Shown piece by piece: positions 21,544 to 28,553 of a DNA stretch of 64,000 bases. The stretch is taken from assembly GCA_039028615.1 (NCBI GenBank), contig JBCCHT010000015.1, positions 64,001-128,000 on the forward strand, in the 5' to 3' direction. The translations under genes were made by a program, and so were the position numbers. The notes beneath the pieces were generated by a model. The model had not been told where the DNA came from and did no database searches. It saw only the letters and a list, made by a program, of their open reading frames with translations. How positions within the stretch are numbered: position 1 is the stretch's first letter; every line of letters starts with the position of its first letter. The DNA comes from Myxococcota bacterium (GTDB lineage: Bacteria > Myxococcota_A > Polyangia > Nannocystales > Nannocystaceae).

Positions 21544-22866
21544 CTACCCGAGGAGCCCGGGAAGGCCGCCCGTGCCGTGCCCCGTATAGCCGAACTCGTC
21601 GATCTCGACTCCGGCCATGTTGGCGATGGAGACCAGCAGCTTGGTGTGCGCGTCGTCGTCTCCGTCGACGGTCTCGCGGTAGTCCAGCGATCGACCGGTG
21701 ACCAGCTGGCCTCCGGCCCGCCCTGCGAGCATGAACGGCATGTCGAAGTGGCCGTGGCGGTTGCCATCGTTGATGTCGCTACCGAAAAAGACGATGGTGT
21801 CGTCGAGGAGGCTTCCGCTACCGCTGGGCATCGCCGCCAGCTGCTGGATGAGGTAGACGAACTGCTCACAGTAGAAGTGGCGGAAGGCGATGAAGTCTCG
21901 CGCCAGCTGGCCCTCGAGGTCGGTGCCGTAGTGCGATGACTGATGATGATTAGTTGCCTCCGAGGCCCCGACCCCGGGGATCGTTATGGGACTGACCGGC
22001 TTGGAGAACATCAACGAGGCGACATTGGTCAGCCCGCACGACAGGGCCAAGACCGTCAGGTCCATCTGCAGCTTGGCTACGGTGGCGAACTGATCGTTGC
22101 GTTCCCAAGTCTTGGGGTAATTGTCGTTTTCATCGATGACGAACCCCTCGGTATTCCACACGATCTCGTCGCACGAGCTGGTGAAGTCGCCCTTGATCTG
22201 GGCCTCGACCTCCCGGAGCGAGTCGAGGTGGATGTCGAGCTTCTCGCGCTCGGTACCCCCGAGGGTGGTGCGCAGTCGCAGGAGGTCGTCGATGGATCGG
22301 TCGATGACGCTCTCCGAGCGGATCTGCGCCCAGTCGGGGCCCGGGTCGGGAAGGTCGGCGTCCTGGAGATCGCCAAAGAGGCGGTCGAACGCGCTGAGGG
22401 GGTTGTCATCGGGCATCACGCTCTGGCCTTGGCCGATATACGAGATGCTCCCCGCCCAGTTCTTGAAGTTGGCGGCGACCCCCAGGCCTACCGTCTTGTG
22501 CGGCACACCCTTGCCCAGGTGATCGCCGAGGAAGATGTCGAGGGAGACGTCGTTGTTGCCGGTCAGGAGCTTCGCGACGCCGCCTTCGTGGGTTCCTTCC
22601 CCGCCGTACATGGTGAGGCCGCGGACGAACACCAGGTCGTCCACGATGGGCTCGAGGGGGGCACTCATCTCGGGGAGGGTGAAGTCGGTCACGCCTCCTT
22701 GGGGGTGCCACAGGTCGCTGATCACACCGTCGGGGGTGTAGACGAACAGCACCTTGACGTCGCCGGGGGCAGCGACGGCATTGCGACCAAGCGAGAGTGC
22801 GAATGGAGAGGCGACCCCGGCGGCGCCGAGCATCTTCAGGAACGAACGTCGTGTCTTGATCAACAT
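21544..22866 (-). CDS. DUF1552 family protein (Tat signal)
   Basis: TRRSFLK Tat motif; YTPDG, P.SAFDRLF, EREKLDIHLDSLREVE, LLDDT, MLAGRAGG; adjacent to DUF1592 partner. Confidence 0.9.
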   Translation of the reverse strand: MLIKTRRSFLKMLGAAGVASPFALSLGRNAVAAPGDVKVLFVYTPDGVISDLWHPQGGVTDFTLPEMSAPLEPIVDDLVFVRGLTMYGGEGTHEGGVAKLLTGNNDVSLDIFLGDHLGKGVPHKTVGLGVAANFKNWAGSISYIGQGQSVMPDDNPLSAFDRLFGDLQDADLPDPGPDWAQIRSESVIDRSIDDLLRLRTTLGGTEREKLDIHLDSLREVEAQIKGDFTSSCDEIVWNTEGFVIDENDNYPKTWERNDQFATVAKLQMDLTVLALSCGLTNVASLMFSKPVSPITIPGVGASEATNHHQSSHYGTDLEGQLARDFIAFRHFYCEQFVYLIQQLAAMPSGSGSLLDDTIVFFGSDINDGNRHGHFDMPFMLAGRAGGQLVTGRSLDYRETVDGDDDAHTKLLVSIANMAGVEIDEFGYTGHGTGGLPGLLG

Positions 22867-22870
22867 GGGT

Positions 22871-24535
22871 CTACTCCGTTCGAATCACGAAGGCATCGAG
22901 GAGAACGCGCTCGACGAACATCTCGCGCAGGTTGCCGCCATTGGCCGCGAGGCCCTCGTTGAGGGCGTCGATGGTGCATTGGTCTTCGGGGGTCACCGTG
23001 CGACCGCTCGTGAACCGCACGTAGTTCTCGACCACGCACGACGCCGTCGTGGGAGAGGCCGCGAGCACCTGTGCGAGCTCGTGGGGGCCGTCGAAGGGGA
23101 TGGGATCGGCCCCTGGCTCGAGGCTCGCCACTTCGCCCGAGGCGTCGATGGGGAGGTCGTTCTCCATGGCCCGGAACGCACCCACGCCGTCGTAGGACTC
23201 GAGCCCGAAGCCCACCGGATCGATGAGCAAGTGGCAGCCTCTGCACGCGGGATCGACCGAGTGCTGGCCGAATCGCTCGCGGGTGGTCGCGTCCGGATCG
23301 AGCTCGGGCGGGACGACATCCACGTCGGGCGGGGGAGGGGGCGGTGGCTGACAGAGCAGGTGATCCCGAACGAAGAGCCCCCGCAGCACGGGCGACGACT
23401 CGTTGGGGTGGGCATGGCTCGCGAGCACGCTGCCCATCATCAACAACCCACCACGTTCGGGGCCCGCGTCCACGCGCACCGGGACGCTCGAGCCAGGGGT
23501 GGGGAGCCCATAAAACTCCGCCAGGGTGTCGTCGACGAACACGTAGTCGGCCAGGAGTAGCTCTTCGACCGTCCCGGCACCCTCGTAGAGCACATGCTCG
23601 ACGAACGCCCGCTGTTCGGCCGCCATCGACTCGCGGATCTCCGGGGTGAAGTCGGGGTACAGCTGCTCGTCCTTGTTGACGTGCAGAAGCGGGCCGGTCC
23701 CGAGCCATTGCGTGAAGAACACGCTCAGCTGGGCCCGACCGCGGGGATGCTCGATGAGCCGTCGGGCGTGGGCTTCGATGCCGTCGGCCGAGTCGAGCTC
23801 TCCCGAGGCCGCGGCGTCGAACAGCTCGTTGTCCGGCATGGTGCCCCACAGCCCGTACGACAATGCCGAGGCCGTCTCGTAGGACGTCAGTCGGTAGAGC
23901 CCGTCGTCGCCGATCGGCTCACCGACTTCGGAGCGATACAGGAACTGGGGCGAGACCAGCATGGAGCGCAGGACCAATCGGACGCCCTCGTAGAAGTCGC
24001 CGTCGGTCCTCGCGGGGTCGAACAGCTCGAGGTAGAGATCGACCTCTTCGTCGGCCATCGGCCGCCGCATTGCCCGAGCACCCAGCGTCTCGATGAACAT
24101 GCGCGCGCAGTCGGGGTCGGCGGGCATGCAGCCGACCAGCGTGGCCCCGACTTGATCGACGGCGATGTCGGCCACCTCGCTCGCCAGCTCCATGTAGGCG
24201 TCCACGTGCCGCGCCGTGACCACGGCCGACGCATCGTTGTCGTAGTGCTCGATGGTCGCTTCGAGCGGGATGAGGTCGATCGGCGGCGGGGCGATGCCCA
24301 GCAGATCGGCCACGGTGGCCTCGTACTCTCGGCGCGTGAGCAGCCGAAGCATCCGCGGACCCGGTGCTCCTTGTTCGCACGCGAGCTCTCCGGCGGTCCC
24401 TCCGTCGCCCGACTCTTCTTCGCCATCTCCCCCTTCGGCCGCCGGGTCGAAACCGTCGATGCCTTTCCGACAGCCACCACCCATCGTCGCGAGCACCACC
24501 ATCGCGATTGCCGTCTTCCCAACTTCCATCGCCAT
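22871..24535 (-). CDS. DUF1587/DUF1595/DUF1592/DUF1588/DUF1585 domain lipoprotein
   Basis: RLLTRREYEATVADL, SPQFLYRSE, LSYGLWGTMPD, SSPVLRG, CRGCH..IDPVGFGLE.YDGVG. Confidence 0.9.
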   Translation of the reverse strand: MAMEVGKTAIAMVVLATMGGGCRKGIDGFDPAAEGGDGEEESGDGGTAGELACEQGAPGPRMLRLLTRREYEATVADLLGIAPPPIDLIPLEATIEHYDNDASAVVTARHVDAYMELASEVADIAVDQVGATLVGCMPADPDCARMFIETLGARAMRRPMADEEVDLYLELFDPARTDGDFYEGVRLVLRSMLVSPQFLYRSEVGEPIGDDGLYRLTSYETASALSYGLWGTMPDNELFDAAASGELDSADGIEAHARRLIEHPRGRAQLSVFFTQWLGTGPLLHVNKDEQLYPDFTPEIRESMAAEQRAFVEHVLYEGAGTVEELLLADYVFVDDTLAEFYGLPTPGSSVPVRVDAGPERGGLLMMGSVLASHAHPNESSPVLRGLFVRDHLLCQPPPPPPPDVDVVPPELDPDATTRERFGQHSVDPACRGCHLLIDPVGFGLESYDGVGAFRAMENDLPIDASGEVASLEPGADPIPFDGPHELAQVLAASPTTASCVVENYVRFTSGRTVTPEDQCTIDALNEGLAANGGNLREMFVERVLLDAFVIRTE

Positions 24536-24757
24536 GCAGATGCTGCGGCATCGATGAATTGATGAATTTATTTTCGCGGGGCGTAGAGCGTTGTTCTGAA
24601 CACTAAAACCACGATGTGCCAGTCGTCATACTCAGTTCCGGTCTGCGAATATTGCCGAAAATCTACCGAGTTTCGCGACTCCTCGCATACGACCGTACAG
24701 GTGGCACATTCGCGATTGAAGCGTTCGTGATCGAGCTGCTCTGGCCGTCGTTTCGTG

Positions 24758-24827
24758 GGGCTCAGCCCCCAGCGGCGGGGGCTTGCACACGCTCTTGCCG
24801 AGTCGTCGTCACGGTTGGGCTACGCTG
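24758..24827. repeat. 70-bp direct repeat, left copy
   Basis: GGGCTCAGCCCCCAGCGGCGGGGGCTTGCACACGCTCTTGCCGAGTCGTCGTCACGGTTGGGCTACGCTG, identical to 26962-27031. Confidence 0.97.
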
Positions 24828-24981
24828 AGTTCATGAGCGTGTCGGAAGTGAACCCCGACGTTTCCGCTGGACTCGACTCTTCGTAAGCCAGTCCGAGCGC
24901 GAGCCTCGGCTCCTCCGTTTTCCGTTGTAGGAATCGAGGAGCTTCAGCCAGTGGACGCCGCCCAGACGGCGGTGCATTGAG

Positions 24982-25926
24982 TTAGGGCCGTGACGTCAGC
25001 AGACGAGCGATAATCGAGGTGACGCCCGGGTATCGGAAATGCAGGACTCCCAACGCATCGCGATTCCCGTCCACGATCCCGTACAACATGTCGGCGAAAC
25101 CACTGGCGTCGGAGGTTGCGATTCGTTGGCACACCGCGGCGATCGTCGCTCTGAACTCGATCACGAGCTCGTTGTGTTCGGTGACCATATGCTCCACCGC
25201 CTGGTCCTCCGTCCATCCGTTCTCGCGTTGATAGGTGTGGACGAGGTTGAGGTCGTGCTCTGCATCCCCACCATCTCGGTCACGGACCAGTGAACCGAGG
25301 TCGTTGGCCAAGCACACGAGATCAACCACCTGCCGGCGGCATCGAGCGACGTCATCGCCCGTGAGCGAGTCGGCGTCGAGGGCCATCGTCATCATCCACA
25401 GGTCGATGTACGGCTCGATGAAAACGGTCTGTCGCCGGAAGTCCCAGTGCTCAGTCACGTTGAGAGCTTCTTGGCGGCTGCTTGGCTCCGCTCGTCGAAA
25501 CTCGAGGTAGTCGTGGAAGTTGCGAGTGAATGAATCGCGAACAATCCTCGGCGCTTGCGCGACTTCATCGGTTTCGGCGAGCCATGCTCGTAGCGGTGCG
25601 GTCAACGGACCCACCGACCACAGCTCATCGGCCGTGGTGAGGTCGGGTAGCTCTTCCGGTTCCGCGTCATCGATGCAGAAGAACAGGAGGCAAAAGCGTG
25701 CCGCGACATCTAGTTGGTGCGCGTTTGCGGTGGTCGGGCAGCACAAGTGCGCGTAGACACTGGCGACGACGACGGCGCGAACGTGCGGGGTATCTAACGT
25801 GGAGTCCCCGAACAGTTTCTTTTGCACCGCCCAAGAGGACGTCCGCATTGCAAGCGAATCGACCTCGGGCGTGTGCAAAACGGATTGAAACTCGTTAACC
25901 CGTGAACGAATCGCGTCGGGATTCAC
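24982..25926 (-). CDS. Class I terpene synthase family protein
   Basis: Asp-rich FCIDDAEPEE, RRQTV sensor Arg, NSE-type NDLGSLVRD, NLV, C-terminal RY; GTG start overlaps the upstream stop (GTGA). Confidence 0.85.
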   Translation of the reverse strand: MNPDAIRSRVNEFQSVLHTPEVDSLAMRTSSWAVQKKLFGDSTLDTPHVRAVVVASVYAHLCCPTTANAHQLDVAARFCLLFFCIDDAEPEELPDLTTADELWSVGPLTAPLRAWLAETDEVAQAPRIVRDSFTRNFHDYLEFRRAEPSSRQEALNVTEHWDFRRQTVFIEPYIDLWMMTMALDADSLTGDDVARCRRQVVDLVCLANDLGSLVRDRDGGDAEHDLNLVHTYQRENGWTEDQAVEHMVTEHNELVIEFRATIAAVCQRIATSDASGFADMLYGIVDGNRDALGVLHFRYPGVTSIIARLLTSRP

Positions 25927-26345
25927 TCCAGGCCCTGAACCTGTTCCGCGATCTTCGTCAGCGCTTCGCTCGTGGTCTGAGAATCGCTGATGTGCGTCAC
26001 GGCGGCTTCCAGCTCGGACCACGGGAAAGGCTTCACGTCGGCTCCCAGCCACGACAGTGCTGTAAGCACGCCTCGAGTCATCCTGTGGTCCGACACGACG
26101 GCCGTGGTGATCCCATGTCCGCGGAACGTGTCGGCAGCGGTTTTTCGCTGGGTGGCGTCGATGGTGGCCGCGCCGATGACCAGAGCAAACAACCGCTTGA
26201 TCTTCTGTGACTGCAAAGCTTCGATGAACGGGTCCCACGACTCCAAAGGGATTTTGTCGCCCTGAGTGCGAGTCACCGTCACCATCACGTTGTCTACGAT
26301 TTCCCACTGGTGGGGCTCAGACGAGCTGTACGTGATCCTGCTCAT
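25923..26345 (-). CDS. STAS/SEC14-like small protein
   Basis: IDATQRK...AVVSD..TRGVLTALSWLG..VKPF motif typical of myxobacterial STAS/SEC14 proteins; start trimmed to ATG 26345. Confidence 0.7.
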   Translation of the reverse strand: MSRITYSSSEPHQWEIVDNVMVTVTRTQGDKIPLESWDPFIEALQSQKIKRLFALVIGAATIDATQRKTAADTFRGHGITTAVVSDHRMTRGVLTALSWLGADVKPFPWSELEAAVTHISDSQTTSEALTKIAEQVQGLE

Positions 26346-26961
26346 TTTCGTTGGGCGCCTGGTCGGATGCGCCAGCTGACGGGAACGATACCAAAGTCCG
26401 TCTCGTCTGGGCACGACACCTCAGCCTGCGTGGGGTGAACCCGCAGGGCCCCTTGCATCGCGATGCACGATAGCTGGTCGCAAGCACGGTCGGTCCCGCC
26501 GAGAAAACGACCGGATGCTGGGCTGCGATACTGTCTGGGCACGTGGATCGAGACCATGCCTCTGGCCGCGTCGGCTCCTTAGCCGGCTCTGGGGAAGCGT
26601 TGGCAGTGGGTGTATCCGTGCCGTTGATCACCGAGCTCGGGTCCGGTTGTTTCAGGATAGGCCGGCAGCAGTGTTGCGTGTCCTGGGCGCGATGCGCGTC
26701 CAATCGGCTGCCAGCGGCCATCTGGGCACGTATCGCTGCCAGATTGTGATGTTTCATCGACGAATTCCCGAAAACGGGCGCGATTTTGAGGCGCCTATCG
26801 AGATCGCACGGGTGCGGTTCCCGTGAGCAAGCGAGGGGATCCCCTGCGCAGCTCGGAGCATCCTGCTCGGGTGTGTTCATTCGCAAACTGCCACCCGGTG
26901 GTTCTTGTCAACAAATACGAAGCTGCAGTTCGTGGGGCCTGAGCTTTGCTCATGTTCTCGA

Positions 26962-27031
26962 GGGCTCAGCCCCCAGCGGCGGGGGCTTGCACACGCTCTT
27001 GCCGAGTCGTCGTCACGGTTGGGCTACGCTG
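26962..27031. repeat. 70-bp direct repeat, right copy
   Basis: Base-for-base match to 24758-24827. Confidence 0.97.
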
Positions 27032-27161
27032 GTGGGGACGGAGGCGCCCGCCCGTTGCCGACTCGGTTGCCCCCCGTCGGAGTACTCCATTGCCCGGTGA
27101 GTCGAGCCGAGTTCCTTGTCCCGCGTGCCGTGGTTCCGAGGCCGAGCGCAGCTGGACGGGC

Positions 27162-28553
27162 GTGACCGAAGTCGACACCTTCGACATCGAGCTCGGGGCT
27201 CACACCGAGTACCACTTTCGTGAGTCCTGCCCCGCGTGCGGCTGGGCGCGGGAGGACGTCACACGTAGCCCTCCGGCGCACTGGCGAAAGCTGCAAAACC
27301 CCGAAGATCGGCTCTGGCACCACGGTTACGACGCGTTCGTGAAGAGCAGTGGGTTCCTCGAAGTCGAGGCCCGAGCAACGTCGCCGAGGCAGTGGGAGCG
27401 GCCCGCTCGCGATGACGTCTGCGCGTTGTTGCTGCGCCGCTTGGAGCACGACGCGTCGACTCCCGTCGCCGTGGAGTTCGAGACGGAGCGCGGCGTCTTC
27501 GAGTTCAGGCTTCGCCCCCTCGAGCTGGCGCGGGGAGTGGCCTCGCTGCGACTGCAGCTCGAGGAGGTCGATGTGGCACGGGCTTCGCTCGGAGACGAGA
27601 AGGACTCGGTCGTGGAGGTACGGACGCATGCGGGCCACCGCGTGGCCCATGTCGCGGCGGGCCGGGAGACCTTCGCGGTGACGCCGGCCGAGACTTGGTT
27701 CGGTGCCATCGATGCGATGTGGAACGAGCAGGTGCACTGGCGGACCACCAAGATCTACGACCACCTGTCGCCCAAGCTCGGTGAGGTCTATGCCGCGATG
27801 ACGGCCGGTCTCGGACGCACGCTCGGGCCACCCGCGCGGCACTCCGTCGAGCCGTTGGAGCTGATTGCCGAGCTGGCACCCGAGGTCGCGAGCGAGCTGC
27901 GGGGCACGAAGGGCCTCGGGGTGGATGGCGGCTTGCTGTGGCTCGGCCCGAAGCCCGTCGGCTCGCTGCCCTTTGCCGACCGCATGGCGCGTTGGCAGAT
28001 CGATGTCGAGCAGCACGAGGCGGCGGACGTGTTCTTCCTCGAGGCTCGGCCCGGGCGGTTGTTCCTGCAGTCGGCGGTGCGCGGCCGGTTCACGCTGTTC
28101 GAGGAATCGTGGTCGGCGGCTCACCCCCTCGGCGTCGGCGAGCGGCTCGCGTTTGCGTGGAGAAACCGCGGACACTTCGTCGACGGTCTGCGGCTGGTCC
28201 AGGGCCAGTTCGGCCCGGCCCAACGCGTGCGGGTTCCGAGCGACGCGGGGCTTTGCTTGCACTCGGTTCGCGCGAGGCAGCTCCAACCGATCGTGATCCC
28301 ACCGACCAACGGCATCGTCCTCGGCCGAGCCCCACACGCCCCCTTGTCGGTCGAGCACGAGATCCTGGGCAAGCGGCAGAGTGAGTTTGCCGTCGACGCT
28401 GGTGGATGGCGCGTCCGTGATGCCGGCAGCCCGTCGGGCACCCGACTCAACGGCGACGAACTCCGCGGCTGGTCCGAGCCGCTGTGCGTCGGCGACGAGG
28501 TCATGTGTGGAGGACTGTGCCTGGTCGTCCTGGACGAGACGGGAGAGCCGTGA
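27162..28553 (+). CDS. Protein with N-terminal CxxC and C-terminal FHA domain
   Basis: IVLGR...WRVRDAGSPSGTRLNG...LCVGDEV (FHA-like; canonical SxxH appears as GKRQ); CPACG near N-terminus; start uncertain. Confidence 0.65.
   Translation: MTEVDTFDIELGAHTEYHFRESCPACGWAREDVTRSPPAHWRKLQNPEDRLWHHGYDAFVKSSGFLEVEARATSPRQWERPARDDVCALLLRRLEHDASTPVAVEFETERGVFEFRLRPLELARGVASLRLQLEEVDVARASLGDEKDSVVEVRTHAGHRVAHVAAGRETFAVTPAETWFGAIDAMWNEQVHWRTTKIYDHLSPKLGEVYAAMTAGLGRTLGPPARHSVEPLELIAELAPEVASELRGTKGLGVDGGLLWLGPKPVGSLPFADRMARWQIDVEQHEAADVFFLEARPGRLFLQSAVRGRFTLFEESWSAAHPLGVGERLAFAWRNRGHFVDGLRLVQGQFGPAQRVRVPSDAGLCLHSVRARQLQPIVIPPTNGIVLGRAPHAPLSVEHEILGKRQSEFAVDAGGWRVRDAGSPSGTRLNGDELRGWSEPLCVGDEVMCGGLCLVVLDETGEP

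Follow-up and report, generated by a model that had tools for sequence, protein, structure and literature searches.

How does a two-gene biosynthetic unit come to lie between two perfect copies of a long direct repeat when it carries no recombinase gene? The question is raised by a 64,000-nucleotide stretch of DNA (hereafter the window, to which coordinates refer unless a contig is named) from an uncultured Myxococcota bacterium of the Nannocystaceae (assembly GCA_039028615.1, contig JBCCHT010000015.1, positions 64,001 to 128,000), in which a terpene-synthase-like gene and a small partner gene are enclosed by a 70-bp direct repeat between positions 24758 and 27031. An earlier note on this DNA had proposed a cassette with a dedicated attachment (att) site, mobilised in trans. 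The evidence gathered here points to another origin: we consider it probable, at roughly 60%, that the islet arose by insertion with long target duplication, likely in a one-off event of break repair or template switching, and is not an att-based element.

The 70-bp repeat and the DNA that it encloses

The islet consists of three parts (GC, guanine plus cytosine content):

24758..24827, + strand: left copy of the direct repeat, putative target duplication; exact identity by blastn, 71% GC
24828..26961, no strand assigned: insert, 2134 bp, GC 0.608, no recombinase gene recognised; covered by one unitig (24798-26991) at depth 14.3
26962..27031, + strand: right copy of the direct repeat; exact identity by blastn; collapsed 70-bp unitig at depth 25.8

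As the earlier note had stated, the two copies are identical at 70 of 70 positions, both letter for letter and by blastn, and their starts lie 2204 bp apart. Their ends are sharp, the ungapped identity of the flanks being 28% and 20% over 40 bp. A blastn search of the 70-mer against the host genome (12.27 Mb, 68% GC, 94 contigs, 96.7% complete) returned these two copies only, with a next-best match at E 0.041; the check that had been suggested for dispersal like that of repetitive extragenic palindromes (REP) or miniature inverted-repeat transposable elements (MITE) thus found none. Exact searches with a 22-mer in the JGI metagenomes and a 20-mer in the GTDB genomes, collection searches that may omit the genome itself and very close ones, gave 0 matches each. 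Among 72 relatives no match to the repeat was better than E 0.002, and seven short ones (E 0.003-0.01, 361-bp query) were treated as chance.

The repeat resembles host DNA in composition (71% GC, compared to 72% to the right of the right copy) and is unlike the insert (60.8%). The latter differs from the 2 kb on its left (0.659) and on its right (0.698); a GC content as low occurs in 0.8% of 24,179 same-size genomic windows, and its 6-mer likelihood falls in the lowest 1% of 2000 random stretches. The claim that the insert is visibly richer in A and T than its flanks therefore stands on the right side; the 222 bp directly left of the left copy are more AT-rich still (GC 0.52), so that only the right boundary is visible in the composition. 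The enclosed DNA does amount to a single two-gene unit with its upstream region, namely open reading frames of 140 amino acids (26345-25923, - strand) and 314 amino acids (25926-24982, - strand), which overlap by GTGA, and 616 bp of upstream DNA. Neither gene is a mobility gene, and Pfam recognised no recombinase or transposase in the insert. Homologues of restriction (R) and modification (M) genes were not found in it by Pfam, NCBIfam or PADLOC, nor were protein remnants found in its non-coding parts by six-frame tblastn on the host genome. The target does not appear to be a transfer RNA (tRNA) gene either, as had been noted: the window holds 0 tRNA or transfer-messenger RNA (tmRNA) genes, and its one Rfam match (E 0.11) is at chance level and lies outside the repeat.

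The 7-bp stem (6-bp spacer) described earlier in each copy is present, but at chance level: among random genomic 70-mers about 5% have a similar stem, and the folding of the repeat does not stand out from that of shuffled sequences (z 0.42 / -0.45). The TACGCT hexamer, proposed as a -10 element, ends one base before the end of the copy and has no -35 partner; a sigma-70 scan gave 0 sites, and the hexamer too is at chance level. With two copies only and no stable hairpin, identification as a REP or a bacterial interspersed mosaic element was rejected. An integron attC site consists of RYYYAAC and GTTRRRY boxes that close a long imperfect hairpin; a GTTRRRY match is present, but RYYYAAC is missing from the same strand and no long hairpin forms, and this candidate was also set aside, IntI not having been searched for. 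A composite MITE or other non-autonomous transposon, which had been suggested, was likewise rejected, the match between the ends of the insert having a p value of 0.08 and no further copy of the islet or of its ends being found in the host genome. The description of both copies as non-coding needs qualification: the recorded protein of the right-hand neighbour, a gene with an FHA domain, starts at 27162, beyond the repeat, yet the right copy lies inside an open frame that runs into this gene. When a hypothetical empty site is built by joining 24604-24827 to 27032-28553, the + strand frame is open from about 24604 into the FHA gene, and the insertion may thus have interrupted a 5' extension of that gene.

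Finally, a 10-nt copy of the junction between the left flank and the repeat is found at 26925..26934 (+ strand), with 27 nt between it and the right copy (p 0.03 in one of 12 tests, uncorrected). It may be what is left of a longer duplication that underwent a 27-nt indel.

We checked the assembly against contigs (word size 31) of run X1, a marine metagenome that is the probable source of the genome and hence not independent. Depth is 12.7 in the left flank, which reaches to 24787, 25.8 in the 70-bp node, 14.3 in the insert piece (24798-26991) and 16.4 in the right flank, which starts at 27002. Contig ends coincide exactly with the repeat (at 24787 and 24798 for the left copy), and each of its four junctions is therefore represented. 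In the graph, flank, 70-bp node, 2194-bp node and flank form a loop, which contigs alone do not phase; the depth fits one integrated copy, with no sign of amplification. The next contigs outward have a depth of about 17, so a minority of empty sites is possible. In runs X2 and X3, only short unrelated pieces matched, and no RNA run was listed as containing this DNA.

Sister islets and the origin of the repeat

A census was made of exact direct repeats of at least 18 bp lying 0.4-60 kb apart in the host genome, each copy being paired with the nearest previous one only. Among the 915 pairs obtained, 401 were sharp-ended: 398 of these measure 18-28 bp, none 29-44 bp, and three measure 45, 53 and 70 bp, the last being the repeat described above. 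All three long sharp repeats enclose DNA at least 4 GC points below its flanks, compared to 6 of the 398 short ones. The two sister islets are as follows:

contig C11, 181552-185953 (L034:4553-8954 = G000:C11:181552-185953), no strand assigned: 45-bp repeat around 4.3 kb of 54% GC
contig C2, 226281-228054 (L033:4282-6055 = G000:C2:226281-228054), no strand assigned: 53-bp repeat around 1.7 kb of 60% GC with one FGE-sulfatase-domain gene

Pfam recognised no recombinase or transposase in any of the three inserts, and sequence likeness across the three islets is not significant, be it between repeats (lowest p 0.018, 3 pairs) or between inner ends (lowest p 0.21, 12 pairs). A 13/14 match of the inner right end of the terpene insert to the start of the C2 repeat was discarded, the pattern occurring five times in the genome and the comparison of the 70-bp repeat (contig C15) with the C2 repeat giving p 0.09. 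Some junctions show a CTNAG motif, which was disregarded as a post hoc finding.

The 45-bp repeat of the C11 islet spans the stop region of convergent peptidase and SNF2 genes, and its insert holds genes for a metallophosphoesterase, an ORC-CDC6-like ATPase (PF24389) and a CARF-like protein, a candidate defence triad. The corresponding site was compared in five congeners. In G003 and G004, the peptidase and SNF2 genes are adjacent with no insert between them; this is the one single-copy empty site that we found in a related genome for any of the islets. In G001 and G005 another gene, without repeats, separates the two host genes, which in G002 lie on separate contigs. An analogue of the short junction copy (12 nt, p 0.006, uncorrected, 12 tests) sits beside its own repeat copy and not the far one. 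The depth of the C11 islet (14.4, compared to 19-22 in its flanks) could reflect partial absence or bias and was not used. What appears to be a diverged second copy of the SNF2 tail is also present in G004, perhaps a scar.

In the C2 islet, the 53-bp repeat covers the stops of two convergent host genes, and the insert starts exactly at the stop codon of the cargo gene, which has homologues elsewhere in four of the five congeners. Two further low-GC regions, on contigs C20 and C5, were not counted as sharp: the duplications at their boundaries are longer and partly diverged, and perfect only in cores of 56 and 85 bp. The C5 region (L035, G000:C5:277163-287696) duplicates the 3' part of a gene and lies about 2 kb from an integrase fragment; the C20 region (L036:4047-8711) includes a truncated insertion sequence (IS) transposase. 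The genome also contains an unrelated dispersed repeat family of about 50 copies (contigs C18, C40, C42, C47, C50 and C53), many of them close to contig ends and in arrays with a spacing of about 320-500 bp.

Is the 70-bp repeat part of the target, or did the cargo bring it along? A profile of the terpene-synthase clade identified 11 other loci in 10 of the 72 relatives, and none of the 11 is flanked by an exact repeat longer than 18 bp within up to 6 kb, five of them having less than 3 kb of flank on one side. In G001, which holds the closest relative within a genome (54% identity), the order of the two genes is the same, but the neighbourhood is another one and again there are no repeats. 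A separate search for related terpene-synthase loci confirmed none among 93 metagenome stretches and one among 44 genome stretches. Since the 11 related loci have no such repeats, the repeat is likely derived from the target and not part of the cassette. When we looked for the empty site itself with a 5.8-kb query in 60 relatives, the matches were mainly DUF1592 homologues (the family of the left-hand neighbour) and nothing substantial beyond that gene, and the regions upstream of three DUF1592 homologues showed no likeness to the repeat.

Routes of insertion

We infer the following course of events. The two-gene terpene-synthase unit would have been inserted once, likely recently, between the divergent DUF1592 and FHA genes, and 70 bp of the chromosomal target would have been copied to both sides without a site-specific recombinase. 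Repair of a staggered break may have captured the incoming DNA, or replication may have switched template and re-entered the chromosome 70 bp behind its exit; either way the length and sequence of the duplication would be fixed by the event and not by the cargo. The unit would have no mobility sequences of its own, and with the repeat copies in place host recombination or slippage could remove it passively or amplify it in tandem. The suggestion that the islet is excisable or amplifiable survives in part: a passive route is plausible by precedent (PMC5426353), whereas the depth shows no sign of amplification.

Unrelated, host-derived repeats of variable length, unrelated cargo and the lack of shared ends fit DNA capture with target copying better than site-specific recombination, and a Ku gene is present in the host genome. 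The dedicated att site of the earlier proposal fares poorly on the same grounds, the repeat being host-like, unique and unstructured and those of the sister islets unrelated to it. It had also been argued that 70 bp is far longer than a normal target-site duplication, but a class of insertions with duplications of more than 30 bp has been described (PMC2853133). The islet shows several features of that class: its repeats exceed 30 bp, its insert is shorter than 20 kb and without mobility genes, and the repeat is neither a dispersed element nor a tRNA end.

Several points weigh against insertion with target copying. An empty site was not seen at the terpene locus, no relative among the 60 or 72 searched holding the target; as neither the target nor a full-length FHA homologue was found in relatives, the attribution of the repeat to the target draws on its composition and on the analogy with the sister islets. 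The insert has no nuclease gene, whereas the published cases mostly carry restriction-modification cargo (PMC2853133). There are 10 tyrosine-recombinase (phage-integrase) domain matches elsewhere in the host genome, and the 10-nt junction copy inside the right end fits a single crossover at least as well. The short flanks of 5 of the 11 comparison loci limit what their lack of repeats can tell, and the C11 site is empty in two congeners only, the other three having other genes or separate contigs there.

The main rival is a single crossover of the Campbell type, in which a non-replicating circle bearing the cargo and a copy of the target would have integrated by homologous recombination and duplicated the shared segment. 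Identity over 70 bp is sufficient for low-level homologous recombination, the 10-nt junction copy would be expected if the homology of the circle was longer and had an indel, and the C20 and C5 regions, with their longer and partly diverged duplications, also speak for this route. This route nevertheless requires a prior event that joined cargo and target copy on one circle; the ends of the terpene islet are otherwise sharp, and the junction copy at C11 lies beside its own repeat copy. We therefore regard it as unlikely. Slightly less probable still is the view that the repeats are attL and attR of a non-autonomous element, for whose integration and excision a site-specific recombinase would act in trans. 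Perfect direct repeats at both ends, each with an inverted repeat inside, speak for it, and the 10 integrase-domain matches make a trans-acting integrase possible, although nothing ties any of them to this repeat. Against it, there is no other copy of the repeat in the host genome, the 72 relatives or the collections searched by exact word, no tRNA, tmRNA or credible Rfam match, and the stem is at chance level. Moreover, three islets with three unrelated repeats would require three enzymes, and the microcin H47 island, at first read in this way, proved to need none of 16 host site-specific recombinases (PMC3191183, PMC5426353).

The remaining explanations carry little weight. IS1634, IS1549 and IS1182 make long, variable duplications, and an IS transposase of this kind could have moved the insert in trans by its short ends. 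IS1630 also generates duplications of this type (PMC2853133). The inner ends of the insert match at 10 of 12 positions in inverted orientation, and contig C20 holds a truncated, below-cut-off match to an IS1182-like transposase. The end match is not significant, with a 7-nt exact core, the sister islets lack such ends, no IS1634 match was found in the host genome, and the islet does not contain the end motif of the IS on C20, all of which makes this transposition very unlikely. An assembly artefact, in which a separate 2204-bp circle was unrolled into the contig beside a single chromosomal copy, would give the same unphased word-31 loop, and run X1 may be the genome's own source. By contrast, the insert depth lies between those of the flanks and the repeat node is as deep as expected for one integrated copy, the unit has no replication gene, and 70 bp is shorter than usual short reads; we hold an artefact to be highly improbable. 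No more probable is a scheme in which the target was first duplicated locally in tandem and the DNA between the copies was then replaced or captured. It leads to the same end product and corresponds to the second route drawn by Lim et al. (PMC3457768), but each of the three loci would have required two events, and the copies are still identical.

A bolder version of insertion with target copying is that the host encodes a capture route, for example Ku-dependent or replication-coupled, that is independent of the cargo and drops foreign blocks at gene boundaries with duplications of 45-70 bp, and that the terpene cargo is an active cyclase without the canonical DDxxD/E motif, helped or regulated by its STAS-fold partner. 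We put this forward tentatively, as a doubtful though possible reading. It draws on three recent events in a single genome, whose cargoes (terpene unit, defence-like triad, FGE-domain protein) are unrelated. Were it true, a restriction enzyme in the cargo would be no requirement for long target duplication, since two of the three inserts have no nuclease-like gene.

The cargo genes and comparison with known systems

The genes of the insert and its surroundings are the following:

24982..25926, - strand: class I terpene-synthase-like gene, 314 amino acids, third-position GC 0.72, Pfam PF19086 at E 9e-17
25923..26345, - strand: SpoIIAA-like/STAS-fold gene, 140 amino acids, unnamed myxobacterial family; its stop overlaps the terpene-synthase start (GTGA)
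26346..26961, no strand assigned: upstream region, 616 bp, with an exact 10-mer three times, at 26406, 26534 and 26721 (candidate operator sites)
22871..24535, - strand: left neighbour, DUF1592/1588/1595/1587/1585 gene, followed by DUF1552; 74%-identical paralogue on contig C2
27162..28553, + strand: right neighbour, 463-amino-acid protein with a weak C-terminal FHA domain

The AlphaFold2 model of the terpene-synthase-like protein has a mean confidence (predicted local distance difference test) of 88.7, and its top Foldseek matches are bacterial class I terpene synthases, with template-modelling (TM) scores of about 0.7 and 15-21% identity. Class I terpene synthases are recognised by the metal motifs DDxxD/E and NSE/DTE (PMC10563020). 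The predicted protein has the alpha-helical class I fold and an NSE/DTE-type motif (NDLGSLVRD), as well as the RY pair, but its first motif, DDAEP, is without the last acidic residue of DDxxD/E. The clade counts 51 representatives at E 1e-10 or better. We aligned 53 rows (seven first matches plus the top-ranked representatives of more than 240 amino acids, out of 122 found): by eye, the fifth motif position is D or E in 5 of the 53, NDxxS is present in 53/53 and RY in 52/53. With the deviation so common in the alignment, it would be a trait of the clade and not a sign of decay. Judged by its motifs, the protein is classed as terpene-synthase-like and not as a canonical enzyme, and the prediction for the cargo is a magnesium-dependent terpene cyclase, from an uncharacterised clade, that has a partner protein of STAS fold.

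The 140-amino-acid partner matched no family in Pfam, NCBIfam or PADLOC. In the ESM Atlas, it resembles unnamed Myxococcota clusters (0.93-0.94), DUF7793 (TM 0.67) and SpoIIAA-like proteins (TM 0.60), and its family has 10 members in the host genome. Protein look-alikes of this kind also suggest that the genome belongs to the Myxococcota. At 6 of the 11 other loci a family member adjoins the synthase: four lie upstream with the same orientation and two are convergent, and three of the six had been in the training set of the profile. In G001, the partner of the orthologue (L024:1875-2297) looks strongly diverged and is possibly decaying. As for the three 10-mers upstream of the STAS-like gene, any such triple occurred in 1 of 3000 shuffles and in 94 of 5000 random genomic stretches; the triple is the only cluster among the 32 genomic occurrences of the word and is absent from the orthologous locus of G001.

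On the left, the DUF1552/DUF1592 operon (21544-24535) has a paralogue on C2 with 76% nucleotide identity over 3 kb, and the family has about 20 members in the genome. For the right-hand neighbour, no full-length homologue was found: the FHA domain alone matched, in three of the five congeners, and only the protein itself among 8000 scored candidates.

Among the papers listed in literature searches none dealt with this clade or with long target duplication in myxobacteria, most subscription papers being outside the scope of those searches. Compared to bacterial class I terpene synthases of PF19086, such as 1,8-cineole synthase (5nx7), linalool/nerolidol synthase (5nx5), 1-epi-cubenol synthase (9hqb) and pentalenene synthase, the cargo enzyme shares the predicted fold, the NSE-type motif and the C-terminal RY; it differs in the low identity, in a first motif that lacks the last acidic residue in 48 of the 53 clade rows, and in its coupling to a STAS-fold gene. 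The cargo thus comes from a divergent, apparently unassayed clade.

Among islands, cis-mobilizable elements (CIME) and satellite islands are flanked by att sites used by tyrosine or serine recombinases and have no integrase of their own. The terpene islet likewise has direct repeats at both ends and no integrase; however, it has no tRNA or other known target, no integrase remnant and no sibling with the same repeat, and shares no att site with an integrase-bearing element. Also comparable is the microcin H47 small genomic island of Escherichia coli, which has secondary-metabolism cargo between direct repeats, no recombinase of its own, and an excision that needed none of 16 host site-specific recombinases (PMC3191183, PMC5426353). 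That island spans 13 kb with extensive imperfect repeats, its target is widespread in the species and its excision was demonstrated by polymerase chain reaction, whereas the present repeat is perfect, unique and 70 bp long.

The closest likeness is to 'insertion with long target duplication', which the Kobayashi laboratory has described for restriction genes as well as other DNAs (Furuta, Abe and Kobayashi 2010, PMC2853133; Lim et al. 2012, PMC3457768). In that class, the footprint is known and the mechanism is open; the published model blames DNA breakage by the restriction-gene cargo, suggested as the cause in the discussion of PMC2853133. Taken alone, the terpene islet adds a further example, from the genome of an uncultured organism, to a pattern already described. 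Biosynthetic cargo without a nuclease, together with two sister events in the same genome, suggests a general host route for gene gain, and the three perfect-repeat loci offer places to count empty sites and circles. The islet differs from the class in that its cargo is a terpene-synthase unit and, with no R or M homologues, falls outside the restriction-modification subclass of Furuta et al., that its target lies between divergent genes, and that an empty site is seen for the C11 sister islet and not for the terpene locus itself. It shares with the class an insert of less than 20 kb, a unique duplication of more than 30 bp, a lack of integrase and transposase and an atypical GC content. The sister islets extend the likeness: many of the published duplications span stop codons (PMC2853133, section 15), and so do their 45- and 53-bp duplications, at the stop codons of convergent host genes.

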